64,000 nt of DNA from Dehalococcoidia bacterium (GCA_030611085.1 JAUWQI010000004.1:1731-65730), one strand, 5' to 3'. Shown: positions 4,345 through 63,606, counted from the first letter of the stretch. The notes: generated by a model from the letters alone, not told the origin. Made by a program: numbers and translations.

Positions 4345-5514
4345 ATGGGGCTGAACTATTACCTAGGCGCGGAGAAACTAACCCACACATTTGAGATGGG
4401 CCCTATAAGGCCTCCCAGTGAGGCTTACTCTTTGCTGATAAGGGCCACTAGAAATTGCCCCTGGAATAAGTGCCAATTCTGCCATGCTTACAAAGGCAGC
4501 AAGTTCGAGCTGAGACCAGTTGAGGAAATCTTAAAAGATATTGAGGCAGCTAAAACTATCAGCGAGGGCATAAAGGAGTTAAGCTGGAGAATAGGCTATG
4601 GCGATGGGATTAAGGAAGTGGCAGAAACGCTTCTTAATCAGCCTCAATATGGGCAATGTGTGCATAATGTTGCCCTATGGTTTTGGGCTGGAGCTGAGTC
4701 AGCTTTTCTTCAAGACTCCAACACGCTTATCATGCGCACTCCGGAGCTAATTCAGGTGATTACTTTTTTGAAGCAGACCTTCCCTAGCTTAAACAGAGTA
4801 ACTTCTTATGCTCGCTCTCATACTACGGCGAGAAAGTCACTAGAGGAGTTAAAAGAGCTTAAAGATGCCGGATTGGATAGGATTCATACCGGACTGGAAA
4901 GTGGATATAACCCTGTGCTCACCTACATGCAAAAGGGGTGCACCGCGGAGCAGCAAATTAAAGGCGGAGTAAAAGTGGTGCAAGCAGGTATCTCCTTATG
5001 TGAATATGTCATGCCTGGATTGGGAGGCAAGAAAATGTCCCAGGAACATGCAAAGGAGACAGCCAAAGTGCTAAATGAAATCAATCCTGATTATATCAGG
5101 TTACGCAGCCTTCATATCCGACCAGATACAACTTTATGGTCCAAGTTCCAAGATGGAGATTTCGAATTGCAAACAGAGGATGAGGTAGTAGAGGAAATAG
5201 GCAATTTTATAAATAATCTGGAGGTTACTAGCTACCTTAAAAGTGACCATATACTTAATCTATTGATGGAAGTGGAAGGCAAAATGCCAGAGGATAAAGA
5301 GAAATGCCTCAATACCATAAATCAATATCTATCATTGCCCGAGGAGGAAAGGCTCAACTTCAGATTGGGGAAGAGGGCGGGCTATTATGAAAAGCTAGCT
5401 GACCTGGCTGATAGCTACAGGCACTACAAAATTGGTGAAGTCATAAAGCACATCCAGTCAAAAGGCGAAAATGTAGACCAAGTGATATTCAGAGTAAAGA
5501 ATAGCTTTATTTAG
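4345..5514 (+). CDS. radical SAM domain protein
   Basis: 389-aa ORF. Cys triad in TRNCPWNKCQFCHAYKG, glycine-rich SAM region and a TIM-barrel-like length. Confidence 0.7.
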   Translation: MGLNYYLGAEKLTHTFEMGPIRPPSEAYSLLIRATRNCPWNKCQFCHAYKGSKFELRPVEEILKDIEAAKTISEGIKELSWRIGYGDGIKEVAETLLNQPQYGQCVHNVALWFWAGAESAFLQDSNTLIMRTPELIQVITFLKQTFPSLNRVTSYARSHTTARKSLEELKELKDAGLDRIHTGLESGYNPVLTYMQKGCTAEQQIKGGVKVVQAGISLCEYVMPGLGGKKMSQEHAKETAKVLNEINPDYIRLRSLHIRPDTTLWSKFQDGDFELQTEDEVVEEIGNFINNLEVTSYLKSDHILNLLMEVEGKMPEDKEKCLNTINQYLSLPEEERLNFRLGKRAGYYEKLADLADSYRHYKIGEVIKHIQSKGENVDQVIFRVKNSFI

Positions 5515-5640
5515 AAAGAAATCAATGGCAAAGGGCTTCTTGAACTTAAACCGCTTTAAGCACGGCAAGGCGATAAAGCAAAACAGCAAGCAAAGGGCTG
5601 ATTTGCAAAGCAGGAAAAAGACTAAAGGCCGTTTAAAAGT

Positions 5641-5690
5641 GTAGTTGCCCAATTTATTGGGCGAGTGTGCCTGATTCATCAGGCAACTAC
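5641..5690. repeat. Family-A structured repeat (GTAGTT-hairpin-hairpin-AACTAC)
   Basis: gtagttGCCCAAtttaTTGGGCgagtgtGCCTGATtcATCAGGCaactac. The outer 6-bp stem encloses two hairpins. It lies just 3' of the radical SAM gene. Confidence 0.85.
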
Positions 5691-5766
5691 GAAAACTTGG
5701 AGATAAATGGCTTCCAGGATACCCGAAATTGAACGGAGGTCAAAATCAAAAAGGAGATAAAACATT

Positions 5767-6126
5767 ATGGCAAAAATTGATAAATTAAGCTTCGGCTCCA
5801 TAGTCATCGATGGCAAGAAACATCGTAAAGATGTCCTTATCTTTGCCGACGGCACGGTAAAGAAAAGGAAAGGCGGTCTTTTGATATTCGGCAGTCACAA
5901 TATCAAAAAAGAGGAAATCGAGGAATTAGCCCAAGGGAAACCCGAAATGATAATCATTGGCACCGGCACTGATGGTAAAGCTAGCTTAGCCGCCGGGGTA
6001 GAAAACTGGGCCAAGGAAAAGAACTTAAACCTGACAGTTCAGCTCTCTTACGAGGCTACAGCCACGCTAAACGAGCTTGTCGAGCAAAAGAAAAAGGTCG
6101 CTGCCCTGATTCATATAACTTGCTAG
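5767..6126 (+). CDS. Mth938-like (DUF498) domain protein
   Basis: 119-aa ORF. SFGSIVIDGKKHRKDVLIF...SHNIKKEEIEEL...IIIGTGTDG resembles the Mth938/NDUFAF3-like family. RBS aaaggag lies upstream. Confidence 0.55.
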   Translation: MAKIDKLSFGSIVIDGKKHRKDVLIFADGTVKKRKGGLLIFGSHNIKKEEIEELAQGKPEMIIIGTGTDGKASLAAGVENWAKEKNLNLTVQLSYEATATLNELVEQKKKVAALIHITC

Positions 6127-7915: not shown

Positions 7916-7952
7916 AACCTTATATATGCTACAGTTTAGCAAGCTTAGACCC

Positions 7953-8606
7953 ATGACTACAAATAGGGAAGTTTTCGACCAGATAGCTGAGAGCTGGTAT
8001 CGAGTGAGACATTGGCCCCGGCTAAGGGAAGAGCTTGAAGTGCTAGCACAAAAATGGCAGGGAGGAAAGCTGCTAAATGTGGGCTGTGCCCATGGCCCTG
8101 ACTTTCTACCTTTTAAGCAAGGCTTTGAACTCTGGGGCGTGGATTCTTCCCCAGCTATGCTCAAACAAGCTCTGAGATATTCAGCCAAATTCCAGTTCCA
8201 GGTTAAATTGGTGGTAGCTGATGCGCTCTCGTTACCCTTTCCAAATGATTCCTTTGACTGGGCAATATCAGTGGCCGCTTATCATCACATCAAGGGAAAG
8301 GATGAAAGGGAAAGGGTATTTATGGAGTTAAAACGGGTGTTAAAGCCTGGCGGCGAGGCTTTCTTAACTGTGTGGAATTATAGGCAGCCTAGGTTCTGGC
8401 TAAAATCGAAAGACCAGGAGGTGCCCTGGAGGCTGAGGGGAAAGACTGTTTATCGCTATTACCACCTTTTCTCTTATGGTGAGCTTAAAAAGCTTTTGAC
8501 CAAAGCTGGTTTGGAAATCATTACGATGTCAGCGGAGAAATCCTACCACTTCCCCATAAAGAACTTCTCCCACAATATATGCGCTCTGGTGAAGAAACGT
8601 CGCTAA
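7953..8606 (+). CDS. class I SAM-dependent methyltransferase, Trm9-like
   Basis: LNVGCAHGPD (motif I). ISVAAYHHIKGKDERERVFMELKRVLKPGGEAFLTVWNYRQ resembles the Trm9/ALKBH8 methyltransferase core. Start chosen at MTTNREVFDQ. Confidence 0.7.
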   Translation: MTTNREVFDQIAESWYRVRHWPRLREELEVLAQKWQGGKLLNVGCAHGPDFLPFKQGFELWGVDSSPAMLKQALRYSAKFQFQVKLVVADALSLPFPNDSFDWAISVAAYHHIKGKDERERVFMELKRVLKPGGEAFLTVWNYRQPRFWLKSKDQEVPWRLRGKTVYRYYHLFSYGELKKLLTKAGLEIITMSAEKSYHFPIKNFSHNICALVKKRR

Positions 8607-17527: not shown

Positions 17528-17599
17528 GGGATATCATGTTATCTTCCTATACTATTTGTAGTAAGCCAAAAAGCGAAGCAATCTATTTGTGCATAAAAT

Positions 17600-17628
17600 C
17601 AACTAATTGCATCAGCAACTTATTGCAA
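17600..17628 (+). promoter_or_regulatory. two direct copies of CAACT(A/T)ATTGCA, putative Fur-family operator
   Basis: caactaattgca (17600-17611) and caacttattgca (17616-17627), about 35 nt upstream of the Fur-family gene. The same 12-mer recurs at 18099 and a variant at 21282. Confidence 0.5.
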
Positions 17629-17662: not shown

Positions 17663-18079
17663 GTGAGCTGCCACAAAGTTCTTCAGGAAAAGGGTTATCG
17701 TTTAACTCCACAGCGCATGCTAGTCATCGAGGCTCTTCATGGCGCTGACGGGCACATCAGCGCTGAAGAAATTTACGAGCAATTACATAGTCGTTACCCT
17801 TATAGCAACATCTCTACTGTGTACCGCACCTTGGAATTATTAAAGAAGCTTAACTTAGTCACTGAAACTGGTTTTGGTGATGGGTGTGTCCGTTATCATG
17901 TTGCTGAGAAGGGGCATCACCACCATCTTGTCTGCCGCACCTGCGGCAAAATAATGGATTTAGATGAATCTGTGCTATATCCGCTAAAAGACGCTTTGCT
18001 TCATGATTATGGATTTGATGCTGATTTGAGGCATTTAGCTATTTTGGGAGAGTGCGGCGAGTGTCATAGGCGAGAATAA
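17663..18079 (+). CDS. Fur-family metalloregulator (Fur/Zur/PerR type)
   Basis: 138 aa with a GTG start. LTPQRMLVIEAL...HISAEEIY... wHTH, the HHHHLVCRTCG and CGEC metal sites. Confidence 0.85.
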   Translation: MSCHKVLQEKGYRLTPQRMLVIEALHGADGHISAEEIYEQLHSRYPYSNISTVYRTLELLKKLNLVTETGFGDGCVRYHVAEKGHHHHLVCRTCGKIMDLDESVLYPLKDALLHDYGFDADLRHLAILGECGECHRRE

Positions 18080-18098
18080 TTTTTTTGCTTGATTAGTG

Positions 18099-18110
18099 CA
18101 ACTAATTGCA
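18099..18110 (+). promoter_or_regulatory. CAACTAATTGCA motif copy upstream of FmdE-like gene
   Basis: Exact 12-mer identical to 17600-17611, located 75 nt upstream of the 18185 start. Confidence 0.45.
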
Positions 18111-18184: not shown

Positions 18185-19435
18185 GTGATTAAAAGAATCT
18201 CGAAATCAGGTATTCTGGTAGGGCTGGCTATCCTTTTAGTTCTAGGCACGGCACTACTCAGTGGATGCGCCAAGGAAGCATCTGCCCCCTCAGGAAAGAT
18301 ATCGGTAGTTAGTGATTATCCTAGTTTAACGCCACTAGTTGACTTTGTCGGCGAAGAAGATTTATCCGTGCTGAACCTGGTGGGATTCAAAGCCGCAGAT
18401 AGAGCTATGAAAGAATTGGGCTTTGAAAGAGGCGACCCTGATATTCTGGCACTGACAGATGCTGGATATATAGCACAGATTGGAGAATATACCTCAGAGG
18501 GAGCCCTTGATGGGGTGATAATGACTGCTGCCACTTCACAAGGCAAGGCAAGCCTGATAAATGTGCACAAGCCCTACAATTCCCCACTATGGTTTGCCTT
18601 CTTCGATAAGAAGAGCAAAAACTGTGTTTACCTTGAAGCCAAGAGCGATGTTCTCAAAACTTACCTGGATAGGGAGAAAACAGGAAGGGATGCCGCCTTA
18701 ACGGCTTTCATGAAGCTCAAGGATGGGGAGATATTCTCCCCGATTGCCAAGGAGAACATTGATGCTGCTAAGCTGCTGAACAATCCCGAACCGTGGCAGG
18801 AGAAGATGGTAGCCAGGGTGTTCGGCGGGAACGAGTTCAGTCTCATCACCCTTTGTAACCTCTGGGCTATGGGATTGCCCAACGACTTCATGAAGGTGGC
18901 CGAGCTTCACGACCATATCTGCCCAGGGCTAACCAGCGGCTACATGATAACCAAATACATAAAAGAGAATTTTCCCTCCGCAAATCCCAGAAATGAGTAC
19001 ACTGTCATAGCCATCCCGCCCTGGTGTAAGGATGACGCTATGATACAGATCTTTGAGACCAATGTCGGTCACAAAGCAATGTATGTAAAGCACCTGACCA
19101 AGGAACAGCAGAAGGCACTTTCCGGGGAAGCCAAGAAAGTAGCCAACATCTTCATCAATAAGGCGACCAACAAGGGAATCGTGGTGGGCTTTGATTGGCC
19201 TAAAGTATATGAAGTTGCCGAAATGCCTGATGAAGCGATAGCCAAGTTCAGAGATTTTACGACCTACTGGTGGTGGTGGGGGAGGCTAAAGGAGGACATT
19301 GCCCTCATGGGCTATCTAGACAAGCCAGAGGACTTTGTCTGCACCATAAAAGAGTTTGACACCACCCCTGAGCAGATTGAGAAGCTGACAACAGCCGGGG
19401 TAAATCCCTTGGTCGAGCTTGGTATTATGCCTTGA
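18185..19435 (+). CDS. lipoprotein with C-terminal FmdE-like domain
   Basis: Lipobox LLSGC after the signal peptide. HDHICPGLTSGY matches the FmdE-family HxHxCPG motif. GTG start with RBS aggagg. Confidence 0.65.
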   Translation: MIKRISKSGILVGLAILLVLGTALLSGCAKEASAPSGKISVVSDYPSLTPLVDFVGEEDLSVLNLVGFKAADRAMKELGFERGDPDILALTDAGYIAQIGEYTSEGALDGVIMTAATSQGKASLINVHKPYNSPLWFAFFDKKSKNCVYLEAKSDVLKTYLDREKTGRDAALTAFMKLKDGEIFSPIAKENIDAAKLLNNPEPWQEKMVARVFGGNEFSLITLCNLWAMGLPNDFMKVAELHDHICPGLTSGYMITKYIKENFPSANPRNEYTVIAIPPWCKDDAMIQIFETNVGHKAMYVKHLTKEQQKALSGEAKKVANIFINKATNKGIVVGFDWPKVYEVAEMPDEAIAKFRDFTTYWWWWGRLKEDIALMGYLDKPEDFVCTIKEFDTTPEQIEKLTTAGVNPLVELGIMP

Positions 19436-19614: not shown

Positions 19615-19767
19615 ATGTGTGTTCCAATAAGTGTAGTTACGGGTGGGGCGGTTAATAGTTGCACTGGAATTTGCCGCGTGTGGCCCCAGGTTACTGGTTT
19701 GCTAGCTCTGGTTGGCGTCCTGGTCTGGAACTTCAGAAAGTCAATATTTAAAAAACCGAGTACCTAA
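19615..19767 (+). CDS. small Cys-rich peptide with C-terminal TM helix (50 aa), paralog 1
   Basis: Own translation: MCVPISVVTGGAVNSCTGICRVWPQVTGLLALVGVLVWNFRKSIFKKPST. RBS ggaggtga lies 7 nt upstream. It is a paralog of 21321-21488. Confidence 0.5.
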   Translation: MCVPISVVTGGAVNSCTGICRVWPQVTGLLALVGVLVWNFRKSIFKKPST

Positions 19768-19892
19768 TCAGTTACTTGTTATTCGCGTAGGAAAGCAGTC
19801 ATTATTGGCGCATTCCTGCAGGCTTTAGGAAATGCAGGAGGGGATTATTGTATCTATGCAGTAGCAATAAATGATATTTAAGGGGGAATAAA

Positions 19893-21198
19893 ATGGCGAA
19901 AAACAAAGTCAGGCTCATTATTACTGTAATATGCCTCATTGGGATAGGCTTGCTTGCATGGTCTATACATTCTACGCTAGCCAAACAAGATTACAATGCT
20001 TTAGGCAATGCTAAGGTATGAAGAAGGGAATTATGACAAGGCGATTGAGTATTATACCAAGGCGATAGAGCAAGACCCTGAGAATGTAGATGCCTATTAC
20101 AATAGAGGTATTGTTTGCTGTGAGTTCTTTCATCACTATGACAAACTTCCCGAACAGACCTATATTGAGGCCGGGCTCGGAGATGAGGAGCAAGCTTTCC
20201 GAAATGCAATGGCAGATTTTAAAAAAGCATTGGAGTTAGACCCAAATTATGCCCTGGCATATTTCGGCAAAGGAAATGCATATTACCTGTATGTAGACTC
20301 TTATGCTGCCAGAGCAACAAAGGTGATTCCAGAGTACGAGAAGGCGATGGCGGGCAAAGATTGGATACTTGATAAAGTTGGGGTGGAAGGAGTTGCATCG
20401 ATATATACCAATCTGGGTAGAACTTACTTCGCCATGTGCGAAATGGACAAAGCATATGAGAATTACAAAAAAGCGTTGGATTTAGCCGCAATAGATACTG
20501 CACTTGAGCATCAGGCGCCGGTTTGCATAGAGATGGGGAAATATGAGGAGGCATACGAATTAGCTACAAAGTATATCGACATGGCTAAAGGTTCGGAGGA
20601 ATTTGATTTGGCACTTATGCCCGGAATGATAGCGGCGTATCACCTCGAAAAGTATGATGAAGCAATTGAATACGGCAATGAAATAATAGAAACTTTCCCA
20701 GATTCAGGTTATGTAGCCGGGGCGTACAGATTTTTAGCCAAAATATACAAAGAAAAGGGAAATGATGCCCAAGCAAGAGACCATGTTGATGCGGCAATAA
20801 TTATGTGTACCGAAATAATTAGTTCAGAGGAAACAGGAGTGGCAGACATCCCCGGAGCCTACTATGAGAGGGGATTAGCATATTTTGACATTGGAAAGTA
20901 TGAGAAAGCGATAAGCGATTTTAAGTATCTGGTAGAGCATCCAGAAATAGCAAACCGTGAAATCGCCCATGAAAACTATTACTTTGAAGGTTATATCGGG
21001 TTAACTTGTGCCTATTCTCAAGTTGGGAAGAATGATGAAGCAAGGCAGGTTTTAGAGAATGGTCTGAAGTTATTGGATGAGCCTGATTTTCAGGGCTATA
21101 AGAAATACAGAAAGGACGGTGTGGAAGCATTGTTAAATGAAATAAATATGGGCAAATCTATACCGATACCAATGATGTACCAAATAATCGGAAAGTAA
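19893..21198 (+). CDS. membrane-anchored TPR-repeat protein (apparent 1-nt frameshift near 20011)
   Basis: ATG 19893 (RBS aaggggg) gives MAKNKVRLIITVICLIGIGLLAW...DYNALGNAKV*. The track ORF 20008-21198 continues the TPR motif (..YEEGNYDKAIEYYTKAIEQDP) in the next frame. Confidence 0.6.
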
Positions 21199-21281
21199 AG
21201 GTAGCAAGGAGAGAGACTGTCGGATATTAAAGTAGAATTAAGCGAAGGTTTGACAAGACTATTGAATAATGATATCATCTG

Positions 21282-21293
21282 CAATCAATTGCA
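21282..21293 (+). promoter_or_regulatory. CAATCAATTGCA motif (variant of putative Fur-family operator)
   Basis: tgcaatcaattgcaat lies 28 nt upstream of the peptide-2 start. It is near-palindromic. Confidence 0.4.
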
Positions 21294-21320
21294 ATAAGCA
21301 AACTAAAGGAGGCAAAAGAG

Positions 21321-21488
21321 ATGTGTGCACCAATTACCGTAACTACCGGAGGAGCAGTCAGTGGCTGCACCGGAGCCTGCCAAGTTATGCCTCAAATACT
21401 TGCTTCACTGGGTATCCTTGGCGTCCTGATTTGGAACTTCAGGGGCTTAATAGGAAAGCGTCTGAATTTTAGAAAAGTAAATAGCTAA
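21321..21488 (+). CDS. small Cys-rich peptide with C-terminal TM helix (55 aa), paralog 2
   Basis: Own translation: MCAPITVTTGGAVSGCTGACQVMPQILASLGILGVLIWNFRGLIGKRLNFRKVNS. RBS aaggagg lies 8 nt upstream. Confidence 0.55.
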   Translation: MCAPITVTTGGAVSGCTGACQVMPQILASLGILGVLIWNFRGLIGKRLNFRKVNS

Positions 21489-21532
21489 CTTCACTATTTG
21501 CTTTTTCTGTATTTGCCGGTTTTGAGTCACAG

Positions 21533-21570
21533 AGCCCTACTTCAGCAGTAGGGCTTTGCGTTTATTTGAA
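21533..21570 (+). terminator. intrinsic terminator/attenuator after peptide 2
   Basis: agccctac-ttcagca-gtagggct hairpin followed by ttgcgtttattt. Confidence 0.55.
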
Positions 21571-21590
21571 GCAAGGATTTTTCTATTTGA

Positions 21591-22454
21591 ATGGCAGTTT
21601 GGATGAAGCGCTTCATATTAGCTCGGAATTTAACCTTGCAGGTTGAGATTACTAATGTCTGTAATTTAAATTGCAAAATATGCATGAGACACGGCTTCGA
21701 AAGGCCGAATGGATTCCTTTCGCTAGATAACTTTAAGAGAATCCTCGATTCAGGCAATTTTCGCTATGTTGGCCTACATGGTTGGGGGGAACCTCTGTTA
21801 AACAAGCAGTTATTCGACATGGTTAGATATGCTGAATCGAAGGGCGTTTCCACCAATCTCACTACCAATGGGACATTGATCCAGGAAAACATAGACAATA
21901 TCTTAAGCAGTGGTTTATGGGAAATCGCCTTTGGTATATATGAGAAGGAACTTTTTAGTAGAGTAACATCTCAGATTGAAAGGTTAATAGAGCAGAAGAG
22001 GAAACGAAATTCTAAGAGGCCAAAAACCTACCTCGACATCACTATATATGAGGGTAATCTGGAGCAAATTCCTGAGTTAGTCAGGCTTGTCCCAGAACTC
22101 GGAATAGATGCAGTGATCCTCCACAGGCTGTTCAATGTCTATAAAGTAGATTCTTCTGTAAAATATATCTCCGAGGAGGAAGAAGAGGAACTATTTGCCA
22201 GGTTAAGGCAATTGGCAAGTCTACTTAAGCTAGAGTTGTATTTGCCGCCGAAACATTCCTATCCTTGCCGAATCGTTAAACGCAGCATCTTTGTTACATT
22301 GGAAGGGAAGGTCACGCCTTGCACCTATCTTCCTGAGTTTTATCTTGGCGATGCCTTAGAGCAAGGAGTAAGCAAGGTTATGCACTCGAAGGCATATTCA
22401 GATTTTGTTAAGAACATGAAGAATCATCCAATATGTAGTAAGTGTCAATGGTGA
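21591..22454 (+). CDS. radical SAM enzyme with short SPASM/twitch-like C-terminus
   Basis: EITNVCNLNCKICM (CX3CX2C), GWGEPLL, and C-terminal Cys residues (TPCTY...HPICSKCQW). Confidence 0.8.
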   Translation: MAVWMKRFILARNLTLQVEITNVCNLNCKICMRHGFERPNGFLSLDNFKRILDSGNFRYVGLHGWGEPLLNKQLFDMVRYAESKGVSTNLTTNGTLIQENIDNILSSGLWEIAFGIYEKELFSRVTSQIERLIEQKRKRNSKRPKTYLDITIYEGNLEQIPELVRLVPELGIDAVILHRLFNVYKVDSSVKYISEEEEEELFARLRQLASLLKLELYLPPKHSYPCRIVKRSIFVTLEGKVTPCTYLPEFYLGDALEQGVSKVMHSKAYSDFVKNMKNHPICSKCQW

Positions 22455-23014
22455 GGAAGGATAAGTCTTATTTTACTCTGCGAGAATGGGCGATAATCGT
22501 TCCTCTGGCTTTAGCCAGCGTCCTAATAAACACTTATTTGCCCATAAAAAGCATCACTGCGCATTTTGACATTCCGGGACCTGCAGCAGGGATGGCTTTA
22601 TTCGGCGGCTTTATCTTTGTGCTATGGATATCGCTAGCTCATCTTACTATTAAGAAGAAATATAGTGGAATTATAACTTCCATCCTTATAGGTGCCATTT
22701 CTCTATTTATCCACCCATGGTATGGCATCATATCCCCTTCCTGGTTCAGCCTTTATGGCATTCTTGGACTTGGCTTTATGGGCATAATTATTGAGCTAAT
22801 GTCCAAATCTTATTGGCGGAGTGTAGTCGGGGGAGGATTAGGGAATTTATGTTGCCTTGTGATAACCTGGTTAGCCATTGGATTTCATACCGGGACATGG
22901 ATGCCAAAGGAATGGGCGCCGTTTCTTATCCTTGGTGCCATTATTTCAGGTGCCATCGGGGTATTGATAGCGCAGGGAATTACCATGGTAATCAAAACAA
23001 ACCAACCTAGATAG
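22442..23014 (+). CDS. polytopic membrane protein (about 5-6 TM), unknown function
   Basis: 190-aa hydrophobic ORF. Its start overlaps the stop of the radical SAM gene by 13 nt, which suggests translational coupling. Confidence 0.6.
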   Translation: MSMVRKDKSYFTLREWAIIVPLALASVLINTYLPIKSITAHFDIPGPAAGMALFGGFIFVLWISLAHLTIKKKYSGIITSILIGAISLFIHPWYGIISPSWFSLYGILGLGFMGIIIELMSKSYWRSVVGGGLGNLCCLVITWLAIGFHTGTWMPKEWAPFLILGAIISGAIGVLIAQGITMVIKTNQPR

Positions 23015-31622: not shown

Positions 31623-31744
31623 CTTCTTGGTGACTTTAGCGGAGTGGACCCACCCGTTCCCATCCCGAACACGGAAGTGAAACTCTCCAGCGCAGACGAT
31701 ACTTAAGGGGCGACTCTCTGGGAAAATATGTCGTTGCCAGGAAG
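31623..31744 (+). rRNA. rrf: 5S ribosomal RNA (stand-alone, no 23S upstream)
   Basis: cccacccgttcccatcccgaacacggaagtgaaac core. The terminal helix cttcttggtgac pairs with gttgccaggaag. Confidence 0.85.
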
Positions 31745-61871: not shown

Positions 61872-61946
61872 TGGCTCCCCGGGCAGGATTCGAACCTGCA
61901 ACCAAGCGGTTAACAGCCGCCTACTCTACCATTGAGCTACCGGGGA
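61872..61946 (-). tRNA. tRNA-Asn (GTT)
   Basis: Hand-folded cloverleaf: TCCCCGG/CCGGGGA acceptor, anticodon loop CTGTTAA, TTCGAAT T-loop, CCA encoded. Confidence 0.85.
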
Positions 61947-61957
61947 ATATCCTTATT

Positions 61958-62031
61958 TGGCTGCCGAGCCTGGATTCGAACCAGGGCTTAAGGATCCAAA
62001 GTCCTCCGTGCTACCACTACACAACTCGGCA
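61958..62031 (-). tRNA. tRNA-Gln (TTG)
   Basis: Hand-folded: TGCCGAG/CTCGGCA acceptor (U1-A72), anticodon loop CTTTGGA, TTCGAAT T-loop, CCA encoded. Confidence 0.85.
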
Positions 62032-62044
62032 CAATCCAATTTCG

Positions 62045-62129
62045 TGCCGAAGGTCGGACTCGAACCGACACGAGAGTCGCCCCCCAACAGTTTTTGAGAC
62101 TGCCGCGTCTACCATTCCGCCACTCCGGC
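62045..62129 (-). tRNA. tRNA-Leu (CAA)
   Basis: Hand-folded: GCCGGAG acceptor, anticodon loop CTCAAAA, long variable arm, TTCGAGT T-loop, no encoded CCA. Confidence 0.8.
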
Positions 62130-62139
62130 ATTTAAAAAG

Positions 62140-62211
<72 letters not shown>

Positions 62212-63464: not shown

Positions 63465-63537
<73 letters not shown>

Positions 63538-63606
63538 CTTTCCATTTTGTCTGTTATCAGACTACAATTGTCAGCAAATATCCTGAAAATTCTGGGGGTA
63601 GCATAA

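Follow-up and report, generated by a model that had tools for sequence, protein, structure and literature searches.

A free N-terminus with an invariant second residue is the mark of several nickel or iron sites, among them the Met-His of NikM, the His-Cys hook of nickel superoxide dismutase (NiSOD) and the Met-Cys of CooT and HypC. NikM itself is an S component, the substrate-binding type of membrane subunit in energy-coupling factor (ECF) transporters, with an extra N-terminal helix that bears the metal-binding N-terminus. Methanobactins and bufferins are metallophores of the ribosomally synthesised and post-translationally modified peptide (RiPP) class, whose Cys residues are enzymatically modified for periplasmic metal handling (PMC11626156). 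The Fur-family regulator Nur recognises the box tTGCaa-N5-ttGCAA and has a Ni-site made up of His70, His72 and His126 (PMC2691836), and the core domain of FmdE proteins, most of which adjoin metal transporters, carries His2Cys2 ligands that held mixed Zn/Ni in the crystal, with zinc dominant (PMC2954224). Here we describe a cassette that lies in a 64,000-nt stretch of DNA from a Dehalococcoidia bacterium (GCA_030611085.1 JAUWQI010000004.1:1731-65730; hereafter the window) and comprises two paralogous membrane peptides beginning M-C-x-P, a radical S-adenosylmethionine (SAM) enzyme, a six-helix membrane protein, a secreted FmdE-domain lipoprotein, a tetratricopeptide repeat (TPR) protein and a Fur-family regulator. 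Peptide and enzyme occur as an obligate pair, and we judge it probable, though only somewhat so, that the cassette is a transition-metal acquisition module, with nickel as the best candidate, in which the radical SAM enzyme alters a small membrane subunit at Cys2 or close to it.

An earlier note on this DNA had drawn attention to two unannotated, paralogous open reading frames (ORFs) with strong ribosome-binding sites, and both are present as described. Peptide 1 (19615-19767, +; 50 residues) is of a 'W-P' type (…CRVWPQ…) and accompanies the TPR protein, and peptide 2 (21321-21488, +; 55 residues) is of an 'M-P-Q' type (…CQVMPQ…) and accompanies the FmdE-like protein and the six-helix protein. 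The two are 54% identical and find each other in reciprocal tblastn searches with an E-value of about 1e-15, and their Shine-Dalgarno sequences, GGAGGTGA and AAGGAGG, are strong and stand 7-8 nt before the start codons. Neither peptide has a match in Pfam, NCBIfam or PADLOC. Searched with a profile of the two peptides, a 90%-clustered database yielded 71 homologues, and 28 representatives at 50% identity were found among 1.84 billion proteins; all of them are about 50-57 residues long and align from residue 1. Pairwise dN/dS among eight peptide orthologues ranges from 0.08 to 0.30. Taken together, these comparisons indicate that both mini-ORFs are genuine genes, within a conserved family whose members span the membrane once and measure about 50 residues.

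The invariant part of the chain is its very start. When database hits were pooled with small ORFs from related loci to give 137 distinct peptides, M1, C2 and P4 proved invariant (137/137); position 5 was Ile, Val or Leu throughout, an Ala being seen in one peptide outside the set (L098); position 6 was Ser or Thr in 129, with Ala or Tyr in some members; and position 7 was Val or Ile in 136. None of the 137 carries a charged residue at positions 1-9, and none extends before Met1. The earlier note had placed the conserved part at the extreme N-terminus, and indeed no leader precedes the motif. Its description of a Cys-rich core joined to a variable membrane anchor, however, does not fit the family in either half. 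Cys2 is the sole cysteine in 22 of the 137 peptides, which lack C16 and C20 and are essentially the archaeal ones (e.g. MCAPITVAAVGGVVAVQAIIATKMIGAVVLGSVFVANYLHPLKKRTLRKVEE); C16 and C20 are therefore a bacterial elaboration, and what all members share is the free N-terminal motif M-C-x-P-[IV]-[ST]-V. Behind it come an uncharged stretch rich in Gly, Ala and Thr, then a single helix with N-[FY] at its end, and last a basic tail. The helix end and the tail, far from being variable, are kept in both domains of life, as N39-F40 (WNF) in bacteria and as ANY or LNF in archaea. Because net charge is skewed toward the C-terminus (+3.5 over the last 15 residues versus +0.5 over the first 25), the positive-inside rule predicts an N-out, C-in topology.

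Approached from the enzyme side, a scan of one genome per GTDB species gave 44 clade loci (L013-L056), 43 of which encode an enzyme 47-77% identical to that of the window, the outlier (L053) standing at 36%. An MC.P ORF lies directly upstream on the same strand in every one of the 44. In the opposite direction, five peptides led to 12 metagenomic loci, and in all 12 the enzyme gene is directly downstream of the peptide; further loci (L093-L099) show the same pairing. Outgroup radical SAM genes are at most 31% identical to the window enzyme, a sharp break from the clade, and no cassette gene was found in their loci. The pair also persists where the permease and FmdE-like genes are missing (L007, L024, L034, L040). 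Peptide and radical SAM enzyme are thus an obligate pair, and the search for homologues and their co-occurrence that the earlier note had called for finds all clade loci paired and the outgroup unpaired. The note had let its case depend on the small ORFs being conserved in related genomes and on the radical SAM gene not being found regularly without them; given the completeness of the pairing and the conservation of the 137 peptides, the case therefore stands on both counts.

Two flavours of peptide can be told apart: those of the 'M-P-Q' type go with the FmdE-like and membrane proteins, and those of the 'W-P' type with the TPR protein. The loci with 'W-P' peptides include some in which only a TonB-dependent receptor, a TPR protein, the peptide and the enzyme are found (L007, L024, L034, L038, L040, L043, L098), and the minimal unit is therefore peptide plus enzyme. 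The hosts are uncultured anaerobes from seep and hydrothermal sediments, with Dehalococcoidia, Desulfobacteraceae including Eth-SRB2, Latescibacterota and Spirochaetales among the bacteria, and anaerobic methanotrophs of the groups ANME-1 and ANME-2, Altiarchaeota, Hydrothermarchaeota, Archaeoglobaceae and Thermoproteales among the archaea. The closest relative of the window enzyme is that of another Dehalococcoidia locus (L013, 77% identity). Since bacterial and archaeal enzymes are still 50-60% identical to each other, the sequences point to horizontal transfer between the domains of life.

Some individual loci deserve mention in their own right. In L007 the radical SAM gene (5113-5924) occupies two frames and is broken near residue 225, by a frameshift or an assembly error. 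L054 has an ORF (2780-2887; MCVPVAALLSELSELSELNTGKSIPIPMMYQILGK) in which the first part of a W-P-type peptide seems joined to the final residues of a TPR protein; it was probably left by a deletion within a TPR-peptide pair. One ANME-1 contig (L041) carries two copies of an archaeal-type peptide (971-1129 and 5570-5728), one of them 4.7 kb from the enzyme and adjoining a fragment that resembles a small FmdE protein; this fragment also occurs in several ANME loci (L022, L026, L028, L051, L055), placed there between peptide and large FmdE gene. Two Aenigmatarchaeota loci (L075, 1128-10427; L076, 2805-12104) hold an unusual array of 7-8 tandem radical SAM paralogues, about 22-27% identical to the window enzyme and unrelated to the cassette.

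The enzyme itself (21591-22454, +; 287 residues) follows peptide 2, as the earlier note had it, and scores above the Pfam cut-offs for both Radical_SAM (PF04055, 47 bits against 29.5), which places it in the radical SAM superfamily, and SPASM (PF13186, 42 bits against 21.5). The designation as a SPASM enzyme is thus right at the level of the profile, but not in the cysteines that define the domain. Seven cysteines are invariant among 28 enzymes from both domains of life: C24-x3-C28-x2-C31 of the SAM cluster, and four in the auxiliary region, C226-x12-G-x4-C244 and, after a gap, C282-x2-C285, with the chain ending two residues later, just after CxxCxW. The full SPASM motif has seven cysteines and two auxiliary clusters, and only four cysteines are found here; what is found is the BtrN-like Twitch pattern of a hairpin Cys pair plus CxxC, in a region that aligns with BtrN residues 164-223. 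The auxiliary region is accordingly predicted to be a single-cluster Twitch site, a truncated SPASM rather than a full one. When the C-terminal 73 residues were compared with the PDB, only BtrN and the anaerobic sulfatase-maturating enzyme (anSME) matched: C226 and C244 align with the hairpin cysteines of BtrN, C244 also aligns with C276 of anSME, and CSKCQW aligns with CKKCKW of anSME (C317/C320). The auxiliary clusters of anSME are fully Cys-ligated.

In an AlphaFold2 (AF2) model of the enzyme (pLDDT 87) only some 13 residues precede the first barrel strand. With no domain before the barrel, the model therefore indicates an enzyme that lacks a RiPP recognition element (RRE), the leader-binding domain. 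The likeness to sactipeptide and ranthipeptide maturases that the earlier note had drawn does not hold up against this architecture, which combines a missing RRE with one four-Cys auxiliary site of the BtrN/Twitch kind; scores for the NCBIfam families PapB, StsB and CcpM are far under their cut-offs. Fold neighbours fall into two classes, peptide modifiers (SuiB, PqqE, SkfB, anSME) and small-molecule enzymes (BlsE, viperin, BtrN, NifB), with TM-scores of 0.57-0.77, and a PDB profile search with 28 enzyme sequences returned generic radical SAM matches only, so that the reaction is not assignable by homology. A reading as a defence system was dropped because PADLOC returned only generic viperin similarity for the enzyme.

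The partner genes supply most of the context. The secreted FmdE-domain lipoprotein (18185-19435, +; 416 residues) has the lipobox LLSGC and matches PF02663 at 66.8 bits against a cut-off of 22.9 (2.7e-18). A signal peptide or lipobox is present in all 23 of its orthologues, at least 90% of which keep H242-x-H244-x-C246-P-G and C281; this His2Cys2 set corresponds to the Zn/Ni site of the FmdE structures. In L098 the TPR gene is preceded by an ORF (7948-8265) whose only match is to the C-terminal end of the FmdE-like protein and which then runs into a transmembrane helix; downstream lie a separate 307-residue FmdE gene and one for a flavin reductase, an enzyme also encoded in L035.

The six-helix membrane protein (22448-23014, +) had been described as starting within the end of the enzyme gene, and so it does: its likely ATG at 22448 lies 7 nt before the end of the enzyme's TGA and gives 188 residues, matching the homologue P0072, with an alternative GTG start at 22442. 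This overlap suggests that the gene is translationally coupled to that of the enzyme. The protein belongs to an unnamed family: no Pfam, NCBIfam or PADLOC match was obtained, and each of its 211 homologues is unnamed. Its AF2 model (pLDDT 88) has as best Foldseek match the S component 5EDL (TM-score 0.64, probability 1.0, E-value 0.026), followed by RibU, 4HUQ_S, FolT and BioY, and on this modelling the protein would have an ECF S-component-like fold.

The gene for the membrane-anchored TPR protein (19893-21198, +) is split in the window. Its orthologues, present in many loci, have a basic N-terminus, one transmembrane helix and a TPR domain; because of the basic N-terminus and the single helix, the TPR domain is predicted to be extracellular. 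In the window one extra base near 20017 (AAGGTAT where the intact frame needs AAGTAT) separates a 42-residue anchor (19893-20021) from a 396-residue TPR domain (20008-21198), and the ten orthologues checked are all single ORFs. An independent assembly that differs at 2 of 6153 bases carries the same split, which may reflect a pseudogene, a restart at an internal ATG or a shared assembly error. Among the roughly 60 loci examined, none has a protease or exporter gene with the cassette; nor is there a sulfatase gene in any locus.

The cassette also has regulatory signals of its own. Where the earlier note had spoken of a Fur-family motif upstream, the link to Fur is real, but it consists of a gene and four palindromic operators. 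The gene (17663-18079, +; an independent gene call, in L097, starts at 17717 and gives 120 residues) matches Pfam FUR at 4.8e-30 and is nearest to Nur. It adjoins the cassette in five independent loci (the window, L015, L018, L024 and L098). Two adjacent operator-like palindromes, ATCAACTAATTGCA and AGCAACTTATTGCA (17598-17627), lie upstream of it, and a third, TGCAACTAATTGCA (18097-18110), precedes the FmdE-like gene, in the same place as in L001, L008, L013, L015, L017, L018 and L027. The fourth, TGCAATCAATTGCA (21280-21293), follows the best promoter-like site of the region, TTGACA-17-TATCAT (11/12 matches, TG-extended; promoter and operator together 21250-21293, +), before peptide 2; in 10 other loci an operator stands 48-58 bp before the peptide start codon. 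These four are the only matches to TGCAAYNAATTGCA in the window, and all are in promoters of the cassette locus. The exact form of TGCAAYNAATTGCA was not found in the first 12 related loci, and relaxing its centre to N4 recovered a conserved operator, TGCAA-N4-TTGCA. It occurs in 17 exact copies in 569 kb of loci, about one being expected by chance on a rough estimate, and all 17 are upstream of FmdE genes or peptide start codons.

The best PDB match of the regulator is Nur (3EYY, 5.2e-32, versus 1.5e-25 for the next), its recognition helix NISTVYRTLELL is identical to that of Nur, and the operator half-sites match the Nur box, although every one of the 17 exact copies has a spacer of 4 where the box has 5. 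Aligned to 3EYY, the regulator keeps H126 of the Ni-site, and H70 and H72 are replaced by Glu and Gly. Because helix and half-sites match while two of the three Ni-site histidines are not conserved, we call the regulator Nur-like in its predicted DNA recognition only. An Rfam scan of the locus gave no riboswitch.

Peptide and enzyme are further set apart by a GC-rich hairpin with a T-rich tail (21530-21568, +), which had been noticed before and is indeed there. Its stem (21530-21558) has 12 bp, 6 of them G-C pairs, and is followed by CGTTTATTTG; it may be a partial terminator or an mRNA stabiliser. At the corresponding place behind the peptide gene, at least 14 bacterial loci have strong hairpins that are unrelated in sequence, and archaeal loci have T-runs. 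These elements suggest that more peptide than enzyme is made, with the enzyme acting catalytically.

What, then, is the cassette for? In four distinct ANME-2 contigs it sits between CbiA, NifH-like and CbiX genes, in the pattern of cfbB/C/A of coenzyme F430 biosynthesis, and a DUF4198-CbiM-x-CbiQ-CbiO set with CfbE_C. In the ANME-1 locus L032 the genes for the alpha and epsilon subunits of carbon monoxide dehydrogenase/acetyl-CoA synthase (CODH/ACS; cdhA/cdhB) are directly upstream. Bacterial neighbours include CooT, HypA, DUF8180, DtxR, FeoAB and TonB-dependent receptors. Both ANME linkages speak for nickel, and of the bacterial neighbours so do CooT, HypA and DUF8180. The earlier note had held in reserve an alternative in which metal-related membrane proteins are matured by the enzyme under Fur-family control, and this agrees with the context far better than a secreted RiPP would. 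The reading that we favour is transition-metal acquisition with a radical SAM-modified membrane subunit; granted that metal uptake is the function, the choice of nickel as the metal is about evenly balanced.

Two loci that have the TPR gene and lack the FmdE-like and S-component-like genes, L034 and L040, show a further, conserved set of genes downstream of the enzyme, which likewise leans toward nickel. In L034 (6967-9710) these are an extracytoplasmic function sigma factor, a zf-HC2 anti-sigma factor and weak matches to Metal_resist and DUF4198, and the downstream ORFs of L040 (7089-10003) have sizes matching this set. The arrangement recalls the nickel/cobalt sensor cnrYXH.

On the favoured reading, the Fur-family protein would bind the TGCAA-N4-TTGCA palindrome and repress the cassette. 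The enzyme would recognise the N-terminal motif of the peptide directly, as anSME recognises C-x-P-x-R, without a leader, and, in the cytoplasm and perhaps while the peptide emerges from the ribosome, would abstract a hydrogen at Cys2 or next to it. Because the four-Cys site resembles those of the dehydrogenases BtrN and anSME, a net two-electron oxidation with the auxiliary cluster as electron acceptor may be envisaged. The chemistry is guesswork, and we offer no more than a rough ranking: an anSME-like oxidation of the Cys2 beta-carbon, to formylglycine or a product derived from it, is a possibility on a level with all other reactions together, epimerisation included, and a thioether ring at Cys2 comes slightly behind. 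Epimerisation of the YydG kind was ranked lower because an invariant eighth Cys, which would serve as hydrogen donor, is absent. The short uncharged N-terminal tail would then be flipped outward, and the mature peptide would remain in the membrane as a stoichiometric subunit, where the S-component-like permease and the secreted FmdE-like or TPR partner would meet its modified N-terminal 'hook'. In this way the module may capture and import a scarce transition metal in sulfidic sediments.

By analogy, peptide and six-helix protein could be a split NikM, a suggestion we treat as a lead only. Carried further, the lead would make the cassette a horizontally shared metal-uptake machine of ANME-1, ANME-2, sulfate reducers and Dehalococcoidia, in which the enzyme-matured peptide serves as the in-trans hook of an S-component-like permease fed by FmdE, that is, a split and post-translationally upgraded NikM analogue supplying nickel for F430, CODH/ACS and hydrogenases in sulfidic sediments; in this full form the proposal is speculative and on balance doubtful. 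A link to the 17(2)-methylthio-F430 of ANME-1 was rejected because bacteria without F430 carry the cassette equally.

Several observations weigh against the favoured reading. The modification of the peptide is putative, and its chemistry guessed; moreover, oxidation of Cys2 would leave the archaeal peptides without a thiol and hence ill-suited to provide a thiolate metal ligand. On the side of the enzyme, the best fold match in Foldseek is BlsE, a small-molecule decarboxylase, the best NCBIfam match is the tungsten-cofactor maturase TIGR04317 (1e-36, 127 bits versus a cut-off of 380), the cofactor-type families AhbD/NirJ and MoaA are also among the best family matches, and the matches of the C-terminal fragment to BtrN and anSME are weak (E 0.2-0.35). 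The six-helix protein shows no sequence relationship to CbiM (hhalign probability 1%), its gene is missing from the TPR-only loci L024, L034, L040 and L007, no genes for the energising T/A components of an ECF transporter were found within the window, and CbiQ/CbiO adjoin the cassette only in the ANME-2 loci, which also carry CbiM. As to the metal, the FeoAB and DtxR neighbours point toward iron, the regulator departs from Nur in its Ni-site and operator spacer, and the first DUF4198 protein to be characterised, the zinc-capture protein Zcp, binds zinc (PMC12663993).

These last points feed the alternative that survives best, namely that the same module serves iron or zinc instead of nickel, which we consider somewhat unlikely and yet a serious contender. 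The Fur-family regulator and the TonB-dependent receptor neighbours would suit it as well, and so would the His2Cys2 ligands, a set typical of zinc, with zinc having dominated the FmdE crystal site (PMC2954224). However, the only tight and repeated linkage is to nickel genes, that is, to cfb and nik-type ECF genes in four ANME-2 contigs, to cdhAB, to CooT and to HypA, and the operator half-site and recognition helix match Nur rather than Fur, Zur or PerR boxes.

It is less likely, and in our view improbable, that the peptide is not a substrate at all, the enzyme instead processing a small molecule (a tetrapyrrole, metal chelate or cofactor precursor) imported by the S-component-like permease, with the peptide as an accessory transporter subunit comparable to CbiN/NikN or as a tether for the enzyme. 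The nearest named families of the enzyme are indeed of the cofactor type, its top fold matches include BlsE, viperin, BtrN and NifB, the four-Cys auxiliary site is shared with BtrN, itself a small-molecule enzyme, and the ANME-2 cassette adjoins F430 biosynthesis genes. Nevertheless, peptide and enzyme stay adjacent where permease and FmdE-like genes are missing, the conserved N-terminus is predicted to face outward, away from the cytoplasmic enzyme, the intergenic hairpins favour unequal expression over a 1:1 complex, and the absolute conservation of residues 1-7 is hard to square with a mere anchor. Finally, a conventional RiPP, that is, a thioether peptide akin to sactipeptides or ranthipeptides, with an N-terminal core that is cut away from a C-terminal 'follower' and exported to act as antimicrobial or diffusible metallophore, is very unlikely: although a short Cys-containing ORF with a terminator-like hairpin behind it adjoins a radical SAM/SPASM gene, the PapB and SkfB families align across most of the enzyme and C2-x3-[ST]6 recalls the Cys-x3-acceptor spacing of ranthipeptides, there is no protease, peptidase-domain ABC exporter or immunity gene in about 60 loci, the enzyme has no RRE domain and the peptide no leader, the N-[FY] helix end and basic tail are conserved as strongly as the N-terminus, archaeal members have a single Cys and some members Ala or Tyr at position 6, and regulation is of a metal type with identical architecture in bacteria and archaea.

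Should the favoured reading be true, a leaderless, N-terminally modified and membrane-retained peptide would be added to radical SAM peptide chemistry, and three unnamed families (the peptide, the 190-residue membrane protein and the secreted FmdE-like proteins) would gain functions; for the FmdE-like proteins the question of a role dates back to their first structures in 2010. Because the cassette lies inside the F430/nickel-transport cluster of ANME-2 and beside CODH/ACS of ANME-1, it may bear on how anaerobic methane oxidisers, whose demand for nickel is large, are supplied with it in settings where sulfides lock up metals. The peptide-enzyme pair is small and easily co-expressed, which makes the central claim directly testable.

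Elsewhere in the window, and apart from the cassette, a lone 5S rRNA gene (31626-31742) is found, with no 16S or 23S rRNA gene detected within the window. Genes for tRNA-Asn, -Gln, -Leu and -Phe are tightly clustered (61872-62211, -), and a tRNA-Lys gene stands apart (63465-63538, +).

Searches of the literature on FmdE, radical SAM, TonB, nickel, ANME, S components and metallophores found no description of the cassette, and databases name its proteins only 'hypothetical', 'radical SAM protein' or 'MoaA/NifB/PqqE/SkfB family'. While the pairing of a radical SAM enzyme with a small ribosomal peptide is already known, the present architecture and context are new. As is proposed for the cassette enzyme, anSME acts without a leader on a short Cys-x-Pro motif in an unfolded polypeptide, and the C-terminal regions of the two enzymes align. 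Its motif, however, is C/S-x-P/A-x-R, whereas the cassette peptides have C-x-P in 137 of 137 and never Arg at position +4, and anSME has about 370 residues, two auxiliary clusters and a target inside a sulfatase, against 287 residues, one site and, as the putative target, the N-terminus of a membrane peptide here. BtrN shares the C-x17-C … C-x2-C arrangement at the C-terminus and is the best sequence match there, and BlsE and SkfB rank high among the fold matches (TM-scores 0.74-0.75); yet BtrN and BlsE act on sugar or nucleoside substrates, and SkfB has an N-terminal peptide-binding domain that is missing here. The sactipeptide and ranthipeptide systems of PapB, CteB and AlbA likewise combine a short Cys peptide gene, a radical SAM/SPASM gene and a hairpin after the precursor. 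In contrast to them, the cassette has no leader, RRE, second auxiliary cluster, protease or exporter, its core would be residues 1-7 with the rest a conserved membrane anchor, and many of its peptides have a single Cys.

Among metal systems, NikM/CbiM (with NikN/CbiN) resemble the cassette in the six-helix S-component-like fold and in the linkage to CbiM-CbiQ-CbiO in ANME-2, and the Met-His at the extreme N-terminus of NikM is as invariant as the Met-Cys of the cassette peptide. They differ in that here there is no sequence similarity to CbiM, the N-terminal arm would be a polypeptide of its own, a radical SAM enzyme takes part and T/A components are absent from most loci. The Ni-hook HCxxPC of NiSOD, the MC… of CooT and the MC[LIV][GA][LIV]P of HypC may be parallels, with an invariant Cys2 near Pro at a free N-terminus as in the peptide, but these proteins are soluble and without radical SAM maturation. 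Nur of Streptomyces is the closest solved relative of the regulator, with an identical recognition helix and TGCAA/TTGCA half-sites, and differs in its spacer of 5 instead of 4 and in having His70/His72 where the regulator has Glu/Gly. Methanobactins and bufferins, lastly, are products of MNIO (DUF692) enzymes, bear signal or leader sequences and occur in soluble or secreted form, whereas the peptides described here are membrane-anchored and paired with a radical SAM enzyme.

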